A stretch of 64,000 nt of DNA from Mustelus asterias (taxonomy: Eukaryota). Each line of letters starts with the position of its first letter. The first letter of the stretch is position 1. Shown piece after piece: positions 4,726 to 63,764 of this stretch. The stretch covers positions 4,960,001-5,024,000 of the forward strand of contig NC_135821.1 of assembly GCF_964213995.1 (NCBI RefSeq), given 5' to 3'. The notes under the pieces were generated by a model. It had not been told where the DNA came from. It saw only the letters and a program-made list of their open reading frames with translations, and did not search any database. The translations under genes were made by a program, and so were the position numbers.

Positions 4726-6808
4726 CAACTTAGCTACCGTCTCTCTTGAACTTCGAACTGCGAGCACTGTGAGTGGCTGCTCTTTCAACCAATGGGACAG
4801 CTGCTTTGGCTCAGGTGTCGTCAGGAGGGCGGAATCGGTGGGGGGGGGGCGGTGGGATGGGGTGGAGGGGGGGAATGGCGTGAGGCTTTGCAAAGATTGA
4901 CACTTCTGCCTGGCTGCCCACCAGCTCTCCTCCCGATGTTTAATTGCCTGGGACATCTTGGCATCAAAGTTTTCTCTTCCTATTTTAAGCTATTCAACTA
5001 ACAATGAATTCTGGTGAACTCAGCAACATGCTGGGTGTGGCAATCTTCTGTTAGTCATCTTAACAAGTATGTTGTTATACTAAGTCGGTTCGGATTATAT
5101 TCGCTGGAGTTTAGAAGAGTGAAAGGGGAAATTTATAAAATTCTAACAGGATTTTCCACAAGTTTTTTTTTTACACAGAGGAAGCCTGGAACTCGCTGCC
5201 GGGGGAAGTTGTGGAAGCAGATACGATCGTGACTTTTAAGGGTCGTCTTGACAAATACATGAATAGGATGAGAATAGAGCGATATGGTCTCTGCAAGGGG
5301 TAGGGGGTTTAAGTTCAGACAAGCAGCATGGTCGGTGCAGGCTTGGAGGGCCAAAAGGCCTGTTCCTGTGCTGTAATTTTCTTTGTTCTTTGTTTAGACA
5401 GGGTAGATTAGACATTGGGTGCCACGGTGGCACAGCACTGCTGCCTCACAGCACTATGGACCCGGGTTCAATTTCCAGCCTCGGGTCACTGTCTGTGTGG
5501 AGTTTGCACATTCTCCCCGTGTCTGCGTGGGTTTCCTCCAGGTGCTCCGATTTCCTCCCACAGTGCAAAGATGTGCGGGTTAGGTGGATTGGCCGTGCTA
5601 AATTGCTCCTTATTGTTAGGGGGACTAGCTAGGGTAAATGCATGGGGTTACGGGGATAAGGTCTGGATGGGATTATGGTCGGTGTAGACCTGATGGACCG
5701 AATGGCCTCCTTCTGCCCTGCATGACTCTAAAATTCAGAAAGAATGTTCCTGATGGTGGGGGAGTCCAGAACTAGGGGTCACAGTTTGAGGATAAGGGGT
5801 CAACCTTTTAGGACTGAGGTGAGGAGAAATTTCTTCACCCAGAGGGTGGTGAATGTGTGGAATTCACTCCCACAGAAAGCAGCGGGGGCCAAAACATTGT
5901 GTGATTTCAAGAAGAAATTAGAAATAGCTCTTGGGGCTAAAGGGATCGAGGGATGGGTGGGGGAAGGGGGTGATCAGGATATTGAATTTGATGCTATGCT
6001 ATGATCATAATGAATGGCGGAGCAGGTTGGAAGGGCCAAATGACCTATTCCTGCTTCTAGTTTCTATAGTGAGCAGTTTATATCAGCTGAGTTAATGCCA
6101 TCACCGAAGGAGTGGACACAGAAATATGCTAACCTGACCAATGTTCATCCACTGGCATATGAAGATAATCCCAGATAGCAAAGATCTTTGCTTTACTGAT
6201 CAGGAAGATCTGAAACTCCACTCTCCCCACCATTGTCCCACATCAATTAAAGGTGTTTGGGGGTTTTTGTCCCTCTGACTCCTCCAAGAGATTGATTCCG
6301 TGGATGAAAATGTCCAACATTTTCCTTTTACCAGTTGAAAATTGTGTCCCCTGGATCTAATCTAGCATTTTACATTAATGCCAGGTAATTTTCTGCAGTT
6401 AGGGGAATCATAGAATCCCTACAGTGCAGAAGGAGGCCATTTGGTCCATCGTGTATGCACCATCTCCTACCCAGGCTTACCCTGTAACCCCGCATATTTA
6501 CCCCTCTTAACCTACATATCTTTGGACACCAAGGGACAATTTAGCACGGCCAATCCACCCTAACCTGCACATCTTTGGAGTGTGGGAGGAAACCGGAGCA
6601 CCCGGAGGAAACTCACGCAGATATGGGGAGATTGTGCAAACTCCACACAGACAATGGCCCGAGGTCAGAATCGAACCCGGGTCCCTGGCGCTGTGAGGCA
6701 GCAGTGCTAACCGCTGTGTTGGTGTGTTAACCTATAACCTATAACCTTCTGACTCAAGGAAGAGGGCACAGCTGACACTTTGCCATTTTTATTTGCCCTG
6801 GGAAGATG

Positions 6809-7444
6809 TTGTGGGCTGGCATATTGATGGGCCGAGGTCCCCGTGGTGTTCTCAGTCGTGTTAGGTAGTGAACGGTAGGCGACAGCGATGGTGACAGAAG
6901 GGTGGGGTATGTCTGTGTGGGGGTGGCGCACACCTTGGGTAGTGAGGGTGCTCTGTATCCTGCCGCCACTCGCTCTTCTTCTCGTTTTCCATCTTACTAC
7001 TTCGATCGGGATGATGTTGCTTTGAGGAACTTTGCCAGGTTTTATCTGGAGCAGTCGTTTGAGGTGTTTCCTCGGAAGGAACTCTTCAAATGCAGACAAT
7101 AAAAATATAACAAAACTTACTCCAACTTATAAATCAAAGAAAGGGTTTAATAAAGAAACTTCATTACTCCAAACTTGGGGCCTCGCCCTGGGCCACTCCA
7201 AGCTCCCCACAATTCCCAACAGGTTCTTATATATAGAGAGTCAGCTGACCATCACACCATTGATTCCATGGTTTAGAGGGTCAGCTGACCCTTACAGCTT
7301 GTTACCATTGGTCACATTACATCCAATACAAAGTTGTCACCGGTTACATTCTAACATGAGGAGCAGGAACATGCTGCCAAGCTGATGAGGTTTCAGAATC
7401 AGCCGCATCATCCTGAAGGATATCAAGGTTAGCGCGAGGGAGAG
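6809..7444 (+). pseudogene. Dead duplicate of gene B exon 2 with flanking intron
   Basis: Near-identical to 21699-22046; acceptor AG lost (ttccA-tct), 8-bp deletion in the RGG codons, interrupted by a 292-bp insertion. Confidence 0.92.
7065..7356. mobile_element. Probable solo LTR inside the pseudo-exon
   Basis: TGTT...AACA termini, exact 5-bp target duplication TGAGG at 7060-7064 and 7357-7361, internal TATA-like and polyA-signal-like motifs. Confidence 0.75.
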
Positions 7445-13509: not shown

Positions 13510-14378
13510 TAAGAAGTCTCACAACACCAGGTTAAAGTCCAACAGGTTTATTTGGCAGCACTAGCTTTCGGAGTCTCGCTCCTTCATCAGGTGAGTGAGG
13601 ACTTGTGTTCACAAACAGGGCATATACAGACACAAACTCAATTTACAAGATAATGGTTGGAATGCGAGTCTTTACAGGTAATCAAGTCTTAAAGGTACAG
13701 ACCATGTGAGTGAAGAGAGGGTTAAGTACAGGTTAAAGAGATGTGTATTGTCTCCAGCCAGGACAGTTTGTGAGATTTTGCAAGCCCAGGCAAGTCGTAG
13801 ATAGTGTGACATGAACCCAAGATCCCGGTTGAGGCCGCCCTCATGTGTGCGGAACTTGGCTATCAGTTTCTGCTCAGCGATTCTGCGTTGTCGTGTGTCA
13901 TGAAGACCACCTTGGAGAACGCTTACCCGAAGATCAGAGGCTGAATGCCCGTGACTGCTGAAGTGTTCCCCGACAGGAAGGGAACACTCCTGCCTGGTGA
14001 TTGTCGAGCGGTGTTCATTCACCCGTTGTCGTAGCGTCTGCATGGTCTCCCCAATGTACCATGCCTCGGAACATCCTTTCCTGCAGAGTATCAGGTAGAC
14101 AACGTTGGCCAAGTTGCAAGAGTAGGTACCGCGTACCTGGTGGATGGGGTTCTCACGTGAGATGATGGCATCCGTGTCGATAATCCGGCACGTCTTGCAG
14201 TGATTGCTGTGGCGTGTCGTGGTCACTGTGACAGTGAACAGAACTCCTCACTCACTTGAAGAAGGAGCCTGAGACTCCGAAAGCTTGTGCTGCCAAATAA
14301 ACCTGTTGGACTTTAATCTGGTGTTGTGAGACTTCTAACTGTGCCCACCCCAGTCCAATGCCGGCAACTCCACATCAT
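13510..14378 (-). mobile_element. Penelope-like element 3' fragment with GIY-YIG endonuclease and inverted terminal repeats
   Basis: ORF 13672-14226 VVYLILCRKGC...YIGET...LRQRVNEH; 13510-13600 and 14245-14340 are inverted copies. Confidence 0.9.
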
Positions 14379-14556
14379 AGCATTTATTGCCCATCCCATT
14401 GACAATGATCATCTTTAGATTTTTTAATTCCAGATTTATATTGAATTCAAATTTAACCATCTGCCGCGGTGGGATTCGAACCCAGCTCCCCAGAGCATCA
14501 GTCTGGGTCTCTGGATTGCTAGTCCATTGATAACTGCTATGTGCCACTGCCACACC

Positions 14557-14778
14557 CAACATGGCTGACAAGCGGGGACTCGCCGTGAGACCACTCAAAA
14601 TGGCGGACGATGCTCGACGGTCGAAGCACGCGCGTCACTCTCAACATGGCGGCCGCTACCCTTTCCAATATGGCGGTGGCCAGGCCCGCCGTTGGCCAAT
14701 CAGCGGCCGCGGATCCGGCGGCGCGCGGCCTGTCAGGGGCAGGCGTCGGGCACGCTCCCGCGGCCTGTGCGCGCTCCC
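14557..14778 (+). promoter_or_regulatory. CpG-rich TATA-less promoter of gene B with four YY1-type motifs and a CCAAT box
   Basis: CAACATGGCTG 14557, CAAAATGGCGG 14596, CAACATGGCGGC 14642, CAATATGGCGG 14666, GGCCAATCAG 14694; high CpG density. Confidence 0.7.
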
Positions 14779-15015
14779 ATGGGCAGCCGCTGGCGCATCT
14801 TGGGCGGCCTGGTGCTGGGCTTGCAGCCAGTCCGCCGCTTGCCCCTAGCCCGGCCTCCGGCCCGGCCCCCCGCCCGGGCCCCGACACTCATCCGCAGCCG
14901 CTCCCAGCACCACGGGGGCAGCCAGAGCTACCTGAACTACCCGCGGGAGTGTGAGGAGGGCATCAACCGGCAGATCAACCAGGAGCTGTCTGCAAGCTAT
15001 GTCTACCTGTCCATG
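14779..15015 (+). CDS. Gene B exon 1 ([79 protein letters not shown])
   Basis: cccATGg start, 79 codons, GTGAGA donor at 15016. Confidence 0.87.
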
Positions 15016-18000
15016 GTGAGAGCCTGACACAGCCCAGAGACTCCCAATCCCAGAGAATCCCAATCCCAGAGAATCCCAATCCCAGAGAATCCCAATCCCA
15101 GAGAATCCCAATCCCAGAGAATCCCAATCCCAGAGACTCCCAATCCCAGAGACTCCCTATCCCAGAGACTCCCAATCCCAGAGACTCCCTATCCCAGAGA
15201 CTCCCAATCCCAGAGAATCCCAATCCCAGAGAATCCCAATCCCAGAGACTCCCAATCCCAGAGACTCCCAATCCCAGAGACTCCCTATCCCAGAGACTCC
15301 CAATCCCAGAGAATCCCAATCCCAGAGACTCCCAATCCTAGAGAATCCCAATCCCAGAGACTCCCAATCCTAGAGAATCCCAATCCCAGAGACTCCCAAT
15401 CCTAGAGAATCCCAATCCCAGAGACTCCCAATCCCAGAGAATCCCAATCCCAGAGACTCCCAATCCTAGAGAATCCCAATCCCAGAGACTCCCAATCCCA
15501 GAGAATCCCAATCCCAGAGACTCCCAATCCTAGAGAATCCCAATCCCAGAGACTCCCAATCCCAGAGAATCCCAATCCCAGAGACTCCCAATCCCAGAGA
15601 ATCCCAATCCCAGAGAATCCCAATCCCAGAGACTCCCAATCCTAGAGAATCCCAGTCCCAGCACATCCCAACAGGGAATCCCAGGGAATCCCAATCCCAG
15701 AGAATCCCAATCCCAGCACATCCCAACAGGGAATCCCAGAGAATCCCAATCCCAGAGAATCCCAATGCCAGCACATCCCAACAGGGAATCCCAATCCCAG
15801 AGAATCCCAATCCCAGAGACTCCCAATCCTAGAGAATCCCAATCCCAGAGACTCCCAATCCCAGAGAATCCCAATCCCAGAGAATCCCAATCCCAGAGAC
15901 TCCCAATCCCAGAGAATCCCAATCCCAGAGAATCCCAATCCCAGAGAATCCCAATCCTAGAGAATCCCAATCCCAGAGAATCCCAATCCCAGAGAATCCC
16001 AATCCCAGAGACTCCCAATCCTAGAGAATCCCAATCCCAGAGACTCCCAATCCCAGAGAATCCCAATCCCAGAGAATCCCAATCCCAGATACTCCCAATC
16101 CTAGAGAATCCCAATCCCAGAGACTCCCAATCCCAGAGAATCCCAATCCCAGAGACTCCCAATCCCAGAGAATCCCAATCCCAGAGAATCCCAATCCCAG
16201 AGACTCCCAATCCTAGAGAATCCCAATCCCAGCACATCCCAACAGGGAATCCCAGGGAATCCCAATCCCAGAGAATCCCAATCCCAGCACATCCCAACAG
16301 GGAATCCCAGAGACTCCCAATCCTAGAGAATCCCAATCCCAGCACATCCCAACAGGGAATCCCAGGGAATCCCAATCCCAGAGAATCCCAATCCCAGCAC
16401 ATCCCAGCAGGGAATCCCAAAGAATCCAGCACATCCCAGCAGGGAATCCCAGAGACTCCCAGCACATTCCAAAAGGGAATCCCAGAGAATCCACATCCCA
16501 ACAGGGAATCCCAGCACATCCCATCTTAGAATCCACATCCCAGAGAATCCCAACAGGGAATCCCAAAGAAACCCAGGAAAACCCAATGGCGACTTCTAGC
16601 ACATCTCAACAGGGAATCCACACCCCAGAGAATCCCAACAGGGAATCCTAGAGAATCCCAGCACAACCCAACAGGGAATCCTCATCCCAGAGAATCCCAA
16701 CAGAGAATCCCAATCCCAGGGAGCACCAACAGAGAATCCCAGCTCAGAATCCACATCCCAGAGAGTCCAGCACATCCTAACAGGGAATCCCAGAGAATCC
16801 CAATCCTGGACATCCCAGGAGGGAATACCAGAACATTCCATTCAATCCAGGATATGCCAGGAGGCAATCCCAATGATGTGAGGAGAAAATCCAGCAGATC
16901 CCATTTAACCCAACATATCTCAGGATGGAATCGCAGCAGATCCTCACTGTTTAATACATTCCAGGAGAGAATCCCAGCAGGGAAAACAGATCCAAGGACA
17001 GAATCCAACAGACACCAACACATCCCAGGTGGCAAATCCCAACGGGTAAACCAGCACATCCTAGCAGTAAATCTATCACAATTGCAGGAGAAAAACCAGC
17101 CCATCCCGTACAGCGTAGTGCACCCCCAGCAGTAGAATTCAATCATATCCCAGCAGGGAATTCCAGCCCACTCTTACTGTATAGCACAAATCTAGAACAT
17201 CCCATTACAACCCAACACATCCCAGCAGTGAATCCCAGTATATCCTCGCTCTCTAGAGTAATACCAGCCAGCACATCCCATTCAATCTAGAATTTATCTT
17301 CAATCTCAGTGGAGAGACCGGGATATGCCATCCTACCCCCTCAGAAATCTACTTTGATCACGTACAATGTAGCACGTCCCCCTCACAGCACCAGCAGAGG
17401 AACCAAACATATTCACTCCCAATCCCAGCACACAATTCCAGAGAGTTCCCCCACAATCCCAAAAATATAGAATCAGTTTGGGTAGAGATAAGAAATAGCC
17501 AAAGAAATAAGTTGCGGGCGTGCGGGCGTGGGGGGAGTTTTTCACACAGAGAGCAATGGGTGCCTGGAACGCGCTGCCAGAGGAGGTGGTGGAAGCAGGC
17601 ACATTAGCAACATTTAAGAGGCATCTGAATGGGTGCACGAATAGGGAGGGAGTGGAGGGATACGGACCGAGTAAGGGCAGAAGGTTTTTTTAAAAAACTT
17701 AGCTACGGCGTCATGATCAGCATGGATTTGGAGGGCCGAAGGGCCAGATCCTGTGCTGTACTTTTCTTTATTCTTTTGAGTTGTTTACAAGTCCCATAAT
17801 AGTAGCTACAAGACATAGTACAGAGCTTAAATCAAGACATAATGTAAGCAAAGGTAGTCCAAAGGTGTGTGGGTTAGGTTGATCGAGCTTAGTAAATTGC
17901 CCCTCAGTGTCAGGGAGATTATTAGGGTAAATATGTGGGATTACGGGGATAGGGACTGGGTGGGATTGTTGTCGGTGCAGGCTCGATGGGCTGAATAGCC

Positions 18001-21000
18001 TTCTGCACTGTAGGGATTCTATGAATAGTGGTGGGAGATTTTAATCTTCATAAAGATTGGACGCCTCAAATTGGCAAAAGTATATTTATTAGTATCACAA
18101 GTCGTCTTACATTAACACTGCAATGAAGTTACTGTGAAAATCTCCTAAGTCGCCACACTCCGGCGCCTGTTCGGGTACACTGAGGGAGAATTTAGCACGG
18201 CCAACCAGCACATCTTTGGACTGTGGGAGGAAACCGGAGCACCCGAAGGAAACCCACGCAGACACGGGGAGAATGTGCAGACTCCACACAGACAGTGACC
18301 CAAGCTGGGAATCGAACCTGGATCCCTGGCGCTGTGAGGCAGCAGCGCTAACCCACTGTGCCACCTTGCCACCCTAGTAGGCTGAAGGATGAGGTCATAG
18401 AGTGTAATTGGGACAGTTTCTTCGAACAATATGTTCTGGAACCAACCAGAGAACAGGCTATTTTAGATTAGTGATGTGTAATTAGGCTGGACTAATTAAT
18501 GACCTCATTGTAAAGAATCCTCTAAGCAAGAGCGATCATAACATGATAGAATATCCCGTTCAGTTTGAGGGTGAGAAATTTGTGTCTGAAATTTAAATAA
18601 AGACTGATACAAGGCCGTACGGACAGAGTTGGCTAAAGTGAAATGGCAGAAGAAAAGGTTAGACAGTAGCATAGCAGTGGCAGACATTTAAGGAGATATT
18701 TCATGACTCTTAATGAAGGTGTATTCCATTGAGAAAGAAAGACGCTCGGAGAAGGATGCAGTATTTGTGGAAGGAAGTTAACAGTGATATCAAGTTGAGA
18801 GATAACGTGCTGCAAAGATTAGTTGTGGAACAGGAGATTGGGAAGATTTTAGAAGCCGGTGAAGGAAGGTTAGAAAAATAATAGAAAAATTGGAATGTGA
18901 GAGAAATTAGCAAGAAATATAAAAGCAGACAATTATAGTTTCTACAAGTATATGAAAAGGAAGAGAGTAGCTAAAGTAAGCATTGGCCCCCTAGAGGATG
19001 AGACTGGGAATTAATAATTGGAACAAGGAAATGACAGATTTTGAACAAGTATTTTCTAACTATCTGCATTAAGCATACCATGAACAGTTGATCAAGACGC
19101 AAGTGGGAGGGAGGAACTTAAAACAGTCACGATCAGTACCTAATTTTTTATTTATTTATTAGTGTCACAAGTAGGTATACATTAGCACTGTAATGAAGAT
19201 ACTGTGAAAATCCCCCAGTCGCCACACTCCGGCGCCTGTTCGGGTAACACTGAGGGAGAATTTAGCACTGCCAATGCACCTAACCAGCACGTCTTTCGGA
19301 CTGTGGGAGGAAACCAGAGCACCCGGAGGAAACCCACGCAGACACAAGGAAAACATGCAGACTCCGCACAGACAGTGACCCAAGCTGGGAATCAAACCCG
19401 GGTCCCTGGCGCTGTGAGGCAGCAGTGCTAACCACCGTGCCAAAGTACTGGGAAAGCTAATGGGACTAAAAGTTGGATACATCGCCTGGCTAGCATTGAG
19501 CCGTGTAAGGCACAGGAGGAGGCCATTCGGCCCATTCTCTGCAGAACAATCCAGTCAGCCCTCTGCTTGATCACCATACCCCTAGCTTTCTGAAAGAAAT
19601 GGCTGTGTAGACAATAGGTGCATTCGTTGTAACCTTCTAAAATTCCATAGATTCTGGAAAGCAGCCAGTGGATTAGAAAATCACAGATGCAACCACAGTA
19701 TTCTAGAAGGGAGGGAGACAGAAAGCAGTATAATAAAATCAAAATATCACTAATGCTGCAAGTCTGAAATAAAAACAGGAAATGTCGGAGGAAAATCTCA
19801 GCAGTTCTGGCAGCATCTGTAGAGAGAGAGAAAGAGAGTTAATGTTTCAAGCCTGTAGGACTTCTTCAGAACTGAAGAGAGGTAAAAATGTGATGGGTTT
19901 TATGATGTTGGAAAGGGTTGGGGTGTAGATTTGGTGGGGACTATATTCTAACATCTGTCATTGGGAATATGCTGGAATCCATTATCGAGACAACAGACAT
20001 TTAGGAAAATAGTAATACAGTCAGGCAGGGTCAGTTTGGTTTTGTGGAAGGGAAAATGTATTTGACAAATTAATTAAGAGTTCTTTGAGGATGTAACAAG
20101 CAGGGTGGATAAAGGGGGACCTGTAAATGTAATGTATTTGGATTTCCAAAAGACATTTGATATGGTGCCACATAAAAAGTTACTGGACTGGATAAGAACT
20201 CATGGTGTTGGGGTGATATGTTAGTACGGATTAGAGGATTGACTAGCGAACAAGAAACAGGAAGTCGGGATAAACTGCTCACTTTCAGGTTAGCAAACTG
20301 TTAATTACTGGAGCACCACAGGACCCTGAACTATTTACTCATGGTGGCACGGTGGTTAGCACTGCTACCTCACAGCGCCAGGGACCTGGGTTCGATTCCT
20401 GGCTTGTGTCACCGTCTGTGCGGAGTCTGCACGTCCTCCCCGTGTCTGCGTGGGTTTCCTCCGGGCGCTCTGCTTTCCTTCCACGGTCTGAAAGACGTGC
20501 TGGTTAGGGTTCATTGGCCGTGCTAAGTTCTCCCTCAGTGTACCCAAACAGGCGCCAGAGTGTGGCGACTAGCGGATTTTTACAATAACTTAATTGAGTG
20601 TTAATGTAAGCCTGACTTGTGACTAATAAATAAATAAAACTTCGTACACCGGTGACTTGGATGAGGGGGTCAGACTGTATTGTAGCCAGATTTGCCATTG
20701 ATAGAAAGATGAGTCAGAATGCCAGATGTGAGGATGGTACAATCCAGAAAAGAGTTTCGACAGGTTAAGTGAGTGGGCAAGAAATTGGCAGATGAAGTAT
20801 AATGTAGGAAGATACGAGTTTGTCCACTTTGGCAGCAAGAACAAAAAAGCAAACTTATTTAAAAAGTGCGAGACTGCAGATTGCTATAATACACAGGGAT
20901 CTGGTTGGCCTTATACAAGAATCAGCAAGTCATGAAGGCGGCGAATGTAATGTTGCCCTTTATTGCAAGGCAGATTACTTCATTTTATTACATCAACAGT

Positions 21001-24000
21001 ACTTAGCACTGCTGCCACACAGCATCAGGGACCCGGGTTCAATTCCGGCCTTTGGTGACTGTGGGGAGCTTGCACGTTGTCCCCGAGTCTGCGTGGGTTT
21101 CCTCTGGGTCCTCCGGTTTCCCCCCACAGTCCAAAGATGTGCAGGTTAGGGAGATTGGCCGTGCTAAATTGCCCCTTCGTGTCCAAAGATGTGCAGGTTG
21201 GGGGGATTGGCCATGCTAAGTTGCCCCTTAGTGCCCAAAGATGTGCAGGTTAGGTGGATTGGCCGTGCTAAATTGCAGCCCACAGCCTGCAAAATAATTA
21301 ATTAAAGCAATTTTAAGGAGCATCTGAAAGGAGGAGAGGTTTAGGAGGGAACTGCAGGTCTTGGGGCCGAAGCAGATAGAATCCATCGAATCCCTACAGT
21401 GCAGAAGGAGGCCATTCGGCCCATTGAGCCTGCATCGACAACAATCCCACCCAGACCCTATCCTCATAGCCCCATGTATTAACCCCGCTAATCCCCCCTG
21501 ACACTAAGGGGCAATTTTAACACAGCCAGTCAGCCTAACCTGCACATCCTGGGACTGTGGGAAGAAACCAGAGCACCCGGAGGAAACCCAGGCAGACACG
21601 GGGAGAACGTGCAGACTCCGCACAGACAGCGACCCAAGCCGGGAATCGAACCCGGGTCCCTGGCGCTGTGAGGCAGCAGTACTAACCACCTCCCTATATT
21701 GTGGGCTGGCATATTGATGGGCCGAGGTCCCCGTGGTGTTCTCAGTTGTGTTAGGTAGTGAACGGTAGGCGACAGCAATGGTGACAGAAGGGTGGGATAT
21801 GTCTGTGCGGGGGTGGGGCACACCTTGGGTAGTGAGGGTGCTCTGTATCCTGCCGCCACTCGCTCTTCTTCTCTGTTTTCAGTCTTACTACTTCGACCGG
21901 GATGATGTTGCTTTGAGGAATTTTGCCAAGTTTTACCTGGAGCAGTCGTTTGAGGAGCAGGAGCATGCAGCCAAGCTGATGAAGTTTCAGAATCAGCGAG
22001 GGGGCCGCATCATCCTGAAGGATATCAAGGTTAGCGCAAGGGAGAGCTCTCCCTCCTTCTTTTCTTTCCCTTCTGACCCACTTCTCCCCTTGTCCCCCCC
22101 ACATTAATAAATGCTCCCCCTCCCCCCCCCCGCCCCCACTGAGCCTGCTGTCTTTATTTCTAGAAGCCGGATCGGGACGAATGGGGCAACGGATTGGAAG
22201 CTATGGAAGAGGCTCTGCAGTTGGAGAAAGAGGTGAATCAGTGTCTCCTGGACCTGCACAAACTGGCCTCCGAGCACGGCGATCCTAATGTGAGTCCTGC
22301 CACCCTGAATTACGTGTATAAATCTATCCACCTTAGAGCAGAAATGTTTCTGCGTAGACAGGATCGATACGTTCAAAATGATGGCAAGAGGAAATGAGGA
22401 GAAACTGTTTCCACTGTCAGGAGGGCTGGCGTGACACAGATTTAAGATCATTAGCAACAGAAGCCGAGAGATAGATGAAGATTAAAGATTAAATTTAGGG
22501 AAGTGAGTTGTCATGATTTGGAATCACATCAGCTTCTCAGAGCGGTACGGGTGGCACAGTGGTTAGCACTGCTGCCTCACAACACCAGGGACCTGGATTT
22601 GATTCCCAGCTTGGTTCACTGTCGGTGTGGAGTTTGCACATTCTCCCCGTGTCTGCGTGGGTTTCCTCCAGCTGCTCCGGTTTCCTCCCACAGTCCAAAA
22701 ATGTGCAGGTTAGGTGGATTGGCCATACTAAATTAACTAGTGTCCAAAGACGTGCAGGTTAGGTGGATTGGCCATGCTAAATTGCCCCTTAGTGTCCAAA
22801 GATGTGCAGGTTAGGTGGATTGGCCATGCTAAATTGCCCCTTAGTGCCGTAATATGTGCGGGTTACGTGGATTGGCCATACTAAATTGCCCCTTAGTGTC
22901 CAAAGATGTGCAGGTTAGGTGGATTGGCCTTGCTAAATTGCCCCTTAGTGTCCAAAGATATGCAGGTTAGGTGGATTGGCCATACTAAATTGCCCCTTAG
23001 TGTCCAAAGGTGTGCAGTTTAGCTGGATTGGCCATGCTAAATTGCCCTAGTGTCCAAAGATTTGCTGGTTAGGTGGATTGGTCATGCTAAATTGCCCCTT
23101 AGTGTCCAAAGATGTATAAGATGTGATTAGGGATGAATATGTGGAGTAATAGGGATAGGGCCTGGGTGGGACGCTGTATGAAAAGTCAGTGCAGGCTCAA
23201 AGGGCCGAATGGCCTCCTTCTGTAGGGATTCAGTGATTCAATCAGCTGTCTGAAAGAGCAGTGGAAGAAACTCCAGTGGTAATTTCCCAAAGGGAATTGG
23301 ATAAATGCTTGAAAAGGTAAAGTTTGAAGGACTGTGGGGAATGAGTAAGGGGAGTGGGATGAGTTAGATAACTCTGTCACAGAGGCAGCACAGACGTGAT
23401 CGATGGAAAAGCTTCCTTCTCCGCCAGGCAGTTTCTGATTGAAGGCAGAAGGAGGGAATCGAACAAAGTGCGGACTTTATGACTCTGCCACGTTTTGCTC
23501 TTCTTGGGTAGGTAAAGATTATGAGAATGTCCCCGTGATCTCTGGTCAGGAATGAGAATCGGGAAGGGGAGTGTGTACAATCCCCCCCGCATCATTGACT
23601 GAGTAAAATATGGAGAGAAGTTCCACCCTGACACAGAACCCCCACACAGTTACATCCCTGCAGCTTTAAAAGCCGGATGTACGTGGGAGGCGATGGCCGA
23701 GTGGTATTATCGCTAGACTATTAATCCAGAAACTCAGCTAATGTTCTGGGGATCCGGGTTCGAATCCCGCCACGGCAGTTGGTGGAATTTTAATTCAATA
23801 AAAAAATTATCTGGGATTAAGAGTCTACTGATTACCGTGAAACCATTGTCGATTATTGGAAAAACCCATCTGGTTCACTAATGTCCTTTATTGGAAGAAA
23901 GCGGTGGCACGGTGGCACAGTGGTTAGCACTGCTACCTCACAGCACCAGGGACCTGGGTTTGATTCCCGGCTTGGGTCACTGTCTGTGCGGAGTCTGCAC

Positions 24001-25532
24001 GTTCTCCCCGTGTCTGCAGGGGTTTCCTCTGGGTTCTCCAGTTTCCTCCCACAGTCTGAAAGACGTGCTGGTTAGGATGCATCGGCCGTGCTAAATTCTC
24101 CCTCAGTGTACCCTGAGTGTGGCGACTAAGGGATTTTCACAGTAACTTCATTGCGGTGTTAATGTAGGCCTACTTGTGACACTAATAAATACACTTAAAC
24201 TGCATTTAACACGGGGCAGCAAATGTCATAAATCCAAATACCTTCAATTAATTGGTAGCCATTAGAAAGCTTCCATTTATATATAGCTCTTTGAGCATAA
24301 CACAATGTCCCAGGGCATTTTCTGACAAAGTCTGACACCAAGCCTCATGAAGGGGAGATGGTGGGGCGTAATAATGTCACCTGACTAGTACTCCAGAAGC
24401 CCAGGCTAATTTCTGGGAGCTTGGGTTCAAATCCCACCATGGCAGCTGGAGGATTTAAACATAGAATCATAGAATCCTTATAGTGCAGAAGGAGGCCATT
24501 TAGCCTGCATCGACCACAATCCCACCCAGGCCCAACCCACATAACCCCGCATTTTTACCATGCTAGTCCCTCTGACACTAAGGGGCAATTTAGCATGGCC
24601 AGTCCATCTTAACCTGCACAACAGGTGGCACAATGGTTAGCACTGCTGCCTCACAGTGCCAGGGACCAGGGTTCAATTCCCAGCTTGGGTCACTGTCTGT
24701 GTGGAGTTTGCACGTTCTCCCTGTGTCTGCGTGGGTTTCCTCCGGGTACTCCGGTTTCCTCCCACAGTCCGAAAGACGTGCTGGTTAGGTGCATTGGCCA
24801 TGCTAAATTCTCCCTCAGTGTTACCCGAACAGGTGCCAGAGTGTGGCGACTACGGGAATTTCACAGTAACTTCATTGCAGTGTTAATGTAAGCCTTACTT
24901 GTGACTAATGAATAAACCTTTATCTTTGGACTGTGGGAGGAAACCGGAGCACCCAGAGGAAACCCACGCAGACATGGGGAGAATGTGCAAACTCCACGCA
25001 GACAGTCACCCGAGGCTGGAATTGAACCCGGGTCCTGGCGCTGTGAGGCAGCAGTGCTAACCACTGTGCCACCGTGCCGTTACCAGTGTTGGAATGATGA
25101 AATCAGGGTTCGCCAGAGTTGGAGGAGAGTAAAGATCTCTAAGGGATGGCTTTTTTTTTGTATTGGGACACTCAAGAGTCAGGATCTGGTAATATCTAAC
25201 TAGTTATGAACAATTTTGACCTTGAAATGTGTTTTGTTAATCAACTGGACAATGTAAAAGAATTGGGGCTGGTAACACTAAACCCATCAGCAGGGTCTGG
25301 TAATAGTAAACTGAGGTGGGTCCAGTTGATGAACTGAGCTACAGTATGGAGAGACCGCATTTTCTTTCTGTTCCAGCTATGCGAATTCCTGGAATCGAAC
25401 TACCTGAATGAGCAAATTGAGGCCATCAAGATGTTTGGAGATCACATCACCAACCTGAAGAGACTGGGAGCCCCTGAGAATGGCATGGGGGAGTACCTGT
25501 TTGATAAGCACACCCTGGGGGAGAGCAGTTAA
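14779..25532 (+). CDS. Ferritin gene B, join(14779..15015,21883..22029,22164..22289,25377..25532), 221 aa heavy-type ferritin with putative mitochondrial presequence
   Basis: All introns GT-AG phase 0; open frame to TAA; ferroxidase residues equivalent to human FTH1 E27, Y34, E61, E62, H65, E107, Q141 all present; the only in-frame ATG upstream of the ferritin domain in this ORF is 14779. Confidence 0.9.
15031..16850. repeat. 16-bp minisatellite (CCCAGAGAATCCCAAT)n in gene B intron 1, decaying to about 17480
   Basis: Directly visible; ORF period of 16 aa equals 3 units. Confidence 0.97.
18085..18372 (-). mobile_element. HE1-headed V-SINE with alternative tail (representative)
   Basis: Same head and V domain, tail ...gtggcgactaggggattttcacagtaacttcattgcagtgttaatgtaag...aataaa; copies at 19150-19442, 24625-24918, 45618-46200, 49548-49848 and 57990-58280. 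Confidence 0.82.
18390..20950 (+). mobile_element. Old degraded CR1 ORF2 remnant, broken by SINE insertions
   Basis: Recognisable decayed motifs such as [13 protein letters not shown] near 20130-20175. Confidence 0.65.
21883..22029 (+). CDS. Gene B exon 2 ([49 protein letters not shown])
   Basis: ttttcAG acceptor, GTtagc donor, 147 nt. Confidence 0.96.
22164..22289 (+). CDS. Gene B exon 3 ([42 protein letters not shown])
   Basis: ttctAG acceptor, GTGAGT donor, 126 nt. Confidence 0.96.
22692..23115 (+). repeat. Tandem array of about 52-bp HE1 internal unit (about 8 copies) in gene B intron 3
   Basis: Same unit as 11295-11910. Confidence 0.9.
25377..25532 (+). CDS. Gene B exon 4 ([51 protein letters not shown])
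   Basis: ttccAG acceptor, TAA at 25530-25532. Confidence 0.96.
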
Positions 25533-25810
25533 GGATGGGTAACATTGGGCCAACCTTGACTCGTTAGAGTCCGGCTGGTGTCTTGTTAGGTCTGCCTTCC
25601 CTAGTTTTTTCTGCAAGCTCATCATTGGCCAGAGAGGGTTCCATTGTTCAGCCGGGCCGTCGATCTTGCTGCCCCGTATGTTACGTTTACCACACTCTTG
25701 TTACCAAAATGGTTGCGGTAATTGCAATGTGGCATTAAAGTGTTCCCATCTGGCAACAGTAATCCACCGGACAAAAGTTCCAGAAAGAACAACTTTGCAA
25801 TCTGTTCCCA

Positions 25811-25816
25811 AATAAA
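25811..25816 (+). terminator. Polyadenylation signal of gene B
   Basis: AATAAA about 280 nt after the stop, followed by T/GT-rich sequence. Confidence 0.65.
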
Positions 25817-26773: not shown

Positions 26774-26812
26774 ATCGCTTCTCGGCCTTTTGGCTAAGAT
26801 CAAGTGTAGTAT
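26774..26812 (+). pseudogene. RNU2: U2 snRNA 5' fragment (nt 1-39)
   Basis: ATCGCTTCTCGGCCTTTTGGCTAAGATCAAGTGTAGTAT equals the vertebrate U2 5' end including the branch-site pairing GTAGTA; rest of U2 absent. Confidence 0.92.
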
Positions 26813-27112
26813 GGATCGCCTGCACTTGGTTGAGGTCATTAGGTTACACTGAGGCTTCATGTGTTTCATATGAAGCAATTTTTAAAAGCGGCATCTCGGC
26901 CTTTTGGCTAAGATGCAAATGAGCTCAAGTCTTGGAGGAGGATCCTCCCCCTTCTCCAATCAGCTTGACTCATGTAGATCAGGCCCAGGACAGGGTGGTT
27001 TTGGTCTCCCGCCCTGTCTTTGTCAGCCTGGATCTGAAATGTCTCAACTTGTTGAGACTCTGAATTGGATTTGATTTGATTGAATTGGAAAAGTATAAAA
27101 AAAAATAAAAAA
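26774..27112 (+). mobile_element. U2 snRNA-headed, structured, A-tailed retroposed insertion (SINEU-like or U2 chimera)
   Basis: Starts exactly with U2 nt 1-39, has a second U2 piece at 26891-26914, ends in an A tail, and splits a Penelope terminal repeat (ctaccaa|...|cctgttggac). Confidence 0.75.
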
Positions 27113-63662: not shown

Positions 63663-63764
63663 ATGCAGTCGCAGGTGAGACAGAACTTTCACCCGGACAC
63701 CGAGACAGCCATCAACAAACTTATCAGCCTCGAGTACTACACCTCATATGTGTACCTCGCCATG
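63663..63764 (+). CDS. Ferritin gene D exon 1 ([34 protein letters not shown]); rest beyond the window
   Basis: aggATG start, 34 codons ending at the conserved Met, GTaaac donor at 63765; not in the ORF track. Confidence 0.9.

Follow-up and report, generated by a model that had tools for sequence, protein, structure and literature searches.

The 64-kb window analysed here (Mustelus asterias contig NC_135821.1, positions 4,960,001-5,024,000 of the forward strand; coordinates below are window positions unless given in Mb) contains four ferritin genes, A, B, C and D, and one broken fragment. Our sequence comparisons indicate that gene B is likely a mitochondrial ferritin, convergent with the mammalian mitochondrial ferritin FTMT, and that the 47-residue leader at its N-terminus is likely a cleavable presequence to the mitochondrial matrix; matrix targeting of the product is the best inference and not a result. 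Gene B is a real elasmobranch gene, conserved and apparently undescribed.

Gene B occupies 14779-25532 on the plus strand and its four exons give a spliced product of 221 aa. The same protein is recorded for Mustelus asterias as RefSeq XP_078093406.1, which bears only the name 'ferritin heavy chain B-like'. Its parts are the following:

14779..14919 (+), 47-codon leader, predicted mitochondrial presequence, with nine Arg and no Asp or Glu, modelled by AlphaFold as disordered, and with orthologous counterparts in 20 species.
14779..15015 (+), coding part of exon 1, 79 aa, comprising the leader plus the start of helix A.
15016..21882 (+), intron 1, 6867 bp, GT-AG, phase 0.
15033-16397 (+), tandem array of a 16-bp unit within intron 1, 83 copies.
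21883..22029 (+), exon 2, 49 aa, holding E61, E62 and H65.
22164..22289 (+), exon 3, 42 aa, holding E107.
25377..25532 (+), exon 4, 51 aa plus stop, with Q141, and D131 replaced by Glu.
25734..25816 (+), candidate polyadenylation signals from a sequence scan, ATTAAA at 25734 and AATAAA at 25811.

The three introns (6867, 134 and 3087 bp) are all GT-AG and of phase 0, and their positions match those of the neighbouring ferritin genes; this evidence comes from the Mustelus DNA alone, the orthologues being known as gene models. An initial annotation of this DNA had counted 79 aa in exon 1 of gene B against 34 aa in genes A, C and D, and the gene models give the same counts. Gene B is single-copy; among the eight exon-1 matches in the genome, only that of gene B covers the exon in full (residues 1-79). 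The Met of the canonical ferritin start, noted earlier as missing in Mustelus, is absent there and in 20 of 20 orthologues, and no in-frame ATG reading into the gene was found upstream.

The Mustelus leader is composed mainly of Arg (nine), Leu (seven), Pro (seven), Gly (six), Ala (four) and Ser (three). The initial annotation was exact as to the nine Arg and the lack of acidic residues; it described the leader as rich in Leu, Ala, Pro and Ser, and Gly is in fact more frequent than Ala or Ser. Leader-bearing orthologues were found in at least 20 elasmobranch species (11 sharks and nine rays and skates), always in frame, which answers the proposal that conservation be looked for in related sharks. 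Exon-skipping or partial models (P0031, P0106, P0128-P0131, P0308) and fused tandem models stand outside this count. The orthologous leaders are 24-60 aa long and begin with MGS in 18 species, with MGR in one and with MAS in Rhinoraja, at the aligned position and after trimming of the model to the aligned Met (48 aa removed). As judged from the sequences, this cross-species conservation, and not the composition, settles the coding status of the leader: in 20 species the alignment puts the start Met at one position and the reading frame stays open, whatever the length of the leader. Among the matches listed (best 120 of 1768, best 150 of 6776, and 73 candidates), none was a leader-bearing orthologue from Callorhinchus, Heterodontus or bony vertebrates.

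Presequences are described as amphipathic segments of 10-70 aa, rich in Ser and Thr and devoid of acidic residues, which the mitochondrial processing peptidase (MPP) cuts downstream of Arg (PMC12895284). With regard to length, basic charge and lack of acidic residues, all 20 leaders agree with this description, and their first 30 residues contain no Asp or Glu and carry a net charge of +2 to +6. As a control for the reading of GC-rich DNA as protein, we used 15 of 19 mis-extended ferritin models (two others were dropped for want of an anchor match), mostly, on our reading, mammalian FTH1 with the 5' untranslated region (5'UTR) read as protein. Acidic residues account for 8 of 979 positions in the gene B leaders vs 50 of 1314 in these controls, and Leu for 16% vs 8.5%. 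The peak hydropathy over 12 residues ranges from 1.05 to 1.91 in the gene B leaders and from 1.41 to 1.91 in four FTMT-type leaders, while four signal-peptide-like ferritin leaders, picked by eye, reach 2.27-3.08, above every gene B leader. Of the 20 leaders, 15 have two adjacent Arg close to their end, in a double-Arg motif of the RRG-QG or RRAAHG type, at which cleavage could take place. In the ESM Atlas the leader alone scored 0.77, which is a lead only, and the full skate protein matched ferritin clusters only.

Several points weigh against a matrix presequence. All 20 leader-bearing orthologues are gene models, and the species are related, so that the counts given above are not independent. 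In Mustelus by itself the leader composition is within chance and is weak evidence: its DNA is 78% GC, and open-frame shuffles lacked Asp and Glu in 21% of cases and combined this lack with at least nine basic residues in 9%, which leaves the single-species argument of the initial annotation with little weight. Arg-richness was rejected as a discriminator, the Arg share being 14.9% in the gene B leaders vs 14.4% in the GC-rich controls. The Tom20-type pattern was rejected likewise, as it occurs in 19 of 20 leaders and also in four of four signal-peptide-like controls. The double-Arg pattern was defined after the alignment had been inspected and is absent from the Mustelus leader itself. The helical hydrophobic moment exceeds that of shuffles (p<0.05) in only two of 16 leaders tested (Mustelus, p=0.71), and the leaders contain 5.7% Ser plus Thr and 28% Gly plus Pro, unlike Ser/Thr-rich presequences. 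Furthermore, five out-of-frame AUGs lie upstream of gene B and would hamper translation if the transcript started upstream of about 14670. The YY1-like motifs of its putative promoter (see below) contain out-of-frame AUGs, so that a transcript would have to begin downstream of that point, with a short 5'UTR, to be translated efficiently.

It could also be that the leader is an annotation artefact, a translation of GC-rich promoter or 5'UTR sequence, or that the gene is silent: read-through of a GC-rich untranslated region gives equally Arg-rich extensions, and the composition in Mustelus alone is unremarkable. Such an explanation is hardly credible in view of the aligned start Met, the frame open in 20 species, the absence of an alternative Met and the intact ferritin core. 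Moreover, the 216-aa protein of the skate Leucoraja has an exact copy in a public run as assembled by Logan, a hint that a spliced transcript may exist. Reads of four runs over 14300-15035 gave repeat-derived cover to about 14550 only and none on exon 1; this blank is uninformative on expression because a DNA-type run (0.56 word share) is equally blank. If the leader is translated, it could instead be an endoplasmic reticulum signal peptide followed by a basic propeptide, so that the ferritin would be secreted or vesicular, like those of insects, which are reported to carry signal peptides (PMC13207978). An uncharged Leu/Gly-rich run of 12-19 residues does lie near the N-terminus in Mustelus, Heptranchias, Cetorhinus and Scyliorhinus. 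However, a 19-residue uncharged run is also found in the FTMT leader of Cavia, Arg is spread throughout the would-be hydrophobic region in the orectolobiform and skate leaders, and the peak hydropathy stays below that of all four signal-like controls, so that we regard entry into the secretory pathway as quite improbable.

Import into mitochondria also has to be compared with the possibility that the leader is retained on a cytosolic, nuclear or membrane-tethered ferritin, either as a disordered basic tail on the outside of the cage or as an N-myristoyl anchor at Gly2. Gly2 is present in 19 of 20 species, the tail is disordered in the structural model and amphipathicity is weak. The PROSITE-type myristoylation pattern fits only five of the 20 leaders, however, and a G after the ATG also suits the start-codon context; the first 30 residues stay free of acids while the leaders range in length between 24 and 60 aa, as would be expected of a targeting signal. 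Retention of the leader is in our opinion unlikely. In a last scheme the protein would be distributed between two compartments, mainly cytosolic, and the work would fall to a leaderless isoform or to the small part that is imported. A leaderless RefSeq isoform exists in Pristis (P0106), and isoforms lacking exon 3 or with altered 3' exons are found in Cetorhinus, Mobula and Rhinoraja. Nevertheless, the Pristis isoform is devoid of helix A and E27 and is unlikely to be a working subunit, and no species offers a Met at the canonical start from which a leaderless chain could begin; we consider this dual distribution very unlikely. A cleavable matrix presequence thus stays our preferred reading of the leader.

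The mature part of the gene B protein matches the ferritin domain PF00210 and, at E about 1e-80, H chains of the PDB, and the AlphaFold model gives a four-helix bundle in which residues 1-50 are disordered (pLDDT<50). The initial annotation had described the ferroxidase centre as intact, and the alignment confirms all seven residues (E27, Y34, E61, E62, H65, E107 and Q141), which are invariant in 20 of 20 orthologues. At two further positions Glu has taken over in nearly all of the 20 orthologues: at D131, the residue of the three-fold channel (residue 173 of gene B), in 19 of them, and at H57 in 18. These replacements may alter iron entry or nucleation. The ferroxidase positions and the D131 site follow the human H numbering.

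To place gene B among ferritins, a maximum-likelihood tree was built from 81 ferritin cores with the leaders removed (169 columns; no teleost M or mammalian L chain included). The 20 gene B orthologues form one clade (support 100/99). They fall outside the H clade (100/97), which includes FTMT and the FTH1 of the shark, a separate gene on contig C9 that carries an iron-responsive element (IRE); within it, the three FTMT sequences nest among amniote H chains (100/98). A clade of gene B with FTMT, the alternative named by the initial annotation, was 44.9 log-likelihood units worse when forced and was rejected by the approximately unbiased (AU) test (p=0.0125), which was run after the tree had been seen. 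The expectation that gene B would group apart from FTMT was thus borne out. The expanded cluster genes form the sister group of gene B at 86/84, below strong support; neither the exact sister paralogue of gene B within the cluster nor the deep nodes are fixed by this tree. Gene B keeps the three ancestral introns and stands in a tandem cluster, in agreement with the earlier proposal of a tandem duplication with introns retained, and tandem duplication within a non-H ferritin cluster is the simplest account that these sequences suggest for its origin. Most likely, gene B arose before the split of sharks and rays, roughly 250-300 million years ago.

The region upstream of gene B has the features of a putative promoter:

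14500..14778 (+), CpG-island, TATA-less putative promoter, CpG observed/expected 0.78-1.0, GC 66-74%.
14558, 14597, 14643 and 14667 (+), -221 to -112 from the start codon, four YY1-like AANATGGCGG motifs from a motif scan.
14696 (+), -83, CCAAT box from a motif scan.

These four are the only YY1-like matches in the 64-kb window. The promoter function of these motifs is putative. No TATA box was found in the 700 bp upstream of gene B; genes A and C and the examined cluster genes have one. The N-terminal surplus of 48 residues in the Rhinoraja model can be back-translated, with ambiguous codons and from the protein model in place of skate DNA, to two YY1 motifs (about -135 and -96) followed by CCAAT (about -69), at distances similar to those in Mustelus; none of 60 shuffles gave this arrangement, which suggests that hound shark and skate share a conserved gene B promoter.

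The initial annotation also mentioned that gene B has no IRE, and this was confirmed by Rfam and by a pattern scan. The only IRE found by Rfam in the window belongs to gene C, and the pattern scan found an IRE-like stem in two of nine ferritin genes, C and FTH1, and none in A, D and the cluster genes. Because seven of the nine genes examined are without an IRE, its absence does not single out gene B and has little weight alone; as a mark of the mitochondrial type it was rejected, being common to A, D and the cluster genes.

Gene B and mammalian FTMT have in common a leader that is basic, poor in acids and alike in charge and hydropathy, as well as the lack of an IRE and an intact ferroxidase centre. 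Both have a TATA-less CpG-island promoter, and YY1 is reported as an activator of human FTMT; according to the same source, FTMT lacks introns and its promoter has no CCAAT box, unlike gene B (PMC5022048). FTMT nests within the amniote H chains, whereas gene B has three introns and stands outside the H clade; gene B is 64% identical to seal FTMT vs 72% to H chains, and a weak test detected no significant resemblance between its leader and those of FTMT (p=0.07 and 0.20). If the matrix reading is right, gene B would function as FTMT does, but its introns and the failed tree test place it outside the FTMT family. Gene B resembles the M ferritins of fish and amphibians in its arrangement of four exons and three introns (PMC4117605) and in the presence of a ferroxidase centre. 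The salmon chains are described as carrying IREs (PMC4117605) and M chains are leaderless; gene B differs in both respects. An orthology of teleost M with tetrapod L ferritins is reported (PMC4117605); gene B was not resolved into one clade with M/L in our tree, which contains neither teleost M nor mammalian L. A likeness to the tetrapod L locus lies in the presence of RUVBL2 on the same contig as the gene B cluster, 1.5 Mb away. In human, RUVBL2 lies close to FTL.

Mitochondrial ferritins are listed in mammals, Drosophila and plants, and the accessible text of these sources names none in fishes (PMC11719527, PMC5022048, PMC13207978). Those of Drosophila and plants are likewise sent to mitochondria outside mammals (PMC11719527, PMC5022048), and the likeness of gene B to these non-vertebrate proteins is one of description only. 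Large conserved tandem ferritin arrays, expressed in the ovary, are reported in the Greenland and white sharks (bioRxiv 10.1101/2024.09.09.611499), to which the 40 exon-2 matches of the Mustelus array can be compared, and the accessible part of this preprint mentions no leader-bearing or mitochondrial member. Our search of the literature on ferritins of sharks, rays, cartilaginous fish and teleosts, with most subscription papers outside its reach, found no description of a shark or ray mitochondrial ferritin, and none of the 20 orthologue records is named mitochondrial. Some cDNA records of Callorhinchus are labelled 'ferritin mitochondrial', and probably owe this label to similarity transfer.

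In the Mustelus genome, 40 of 62 exon-2 matches lie within a tandem array at C21:4.67-5.03 Mb, with gene B near its end. The three genes modelled in this array each carry a TATA box and lack an IRE. A smaller ferritin array lies near C21:10.47-10.50 Mb, and scattered copies, several of them intronless or broken, are found elsewhere. The broken fragment of the window (6806-7444, +) is a partial copy of gene B that spans exon 2 and the last part of intron 1, with 95% identity across 260 bp, and in which the splice acceptor is lost and the exon is split by an insertion of about 290 bp. Gene A (4592-1323, -) is a paralogue on a long branch; it has a TATA box, lacks an IRE and is altered in the surroundings of E61/E62. 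Gene D (63663-63764 in the window; C21:5.026-5.050 Mb) is divergent and without an IRE, and its ferroxidase residues appear altered; it pairs with a 'lower subunit-like' protein of Callorhinchus (100/99), a pairing by which it is placed as an old chondrichthyan paralogue. Two RefSeq isoforms of Rhinoraja, X3 and X1 (P0129 and P0130), join exons 1-2 of gene B to gene D-like exons 3-4, which suggests read-through splicing between neighbours in the skate, and a conserved B...D order. A weak match to U2 snRNA (26774-26953, +; 49 bits for a threshold of 46) lies 1.2 kb after gene B and is probably a pseudogene. In the 180 kb downstream, a listing of long reading frames gave mostly repeats, together with repeated exons that resemble fibronectin-III modules by eye. 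In the bat Molossus molossus, the H-type model P0038 (212 aa) has a 35-aa Arg-rich, acid-free extension and no canonical Met; it is grouped with H chains and not with FTMT, and is possibly another gain of a leader or an annotation artefact.

The following scheme can be proposed for gene B. Its precursor would be imported into the mitochondrial matrix via TOM/TIM23, the leader would be trimmed by MPP after its Arg-rich end, and the subunits would assemble into a 24-mer cage, as is usual in the ferritin family. This cage would oxidise and store iron in the matrix, near the synthesis of haem and iron-sulfur clusters and outside the control exerted by IRE and iron regulatory proteins. In the course of evolution, exon 1 would have been extended in the 5' direction and the old start codon lost after tandem duplication in the non-H cluster, and the gene would have been placed behind a CpG-island promoter with YY1 and CCAAT motifs. 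The complete proposal, an elasmobranch mitochondrial ferritin kept since before the shark-ray split, which gained both a presequence and this YY1/CCAAT CpG promoter and is broadly expressed unlike FTMT, seems to us evenly balanced between true and false.

If gene B is a mitochondrial ferritin, mitochondrial iron storage would have been invented twice in vertebrates, in mammals through retroposition and in elasmobranchs through tandem duplication. Vertebrates would have moved ferritin repeatedly to mitochondria, taking another route and starting from another parent gene, which would argue for strong selection on the buffering of matrix iron. The knockout of FTMT in mice is, however, reported to cause mild phenotypes only (PMC11719527). 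Gene B would offer a direct comparison for understanding what FTMT is for, and the annotation of 20 records would be corrected.

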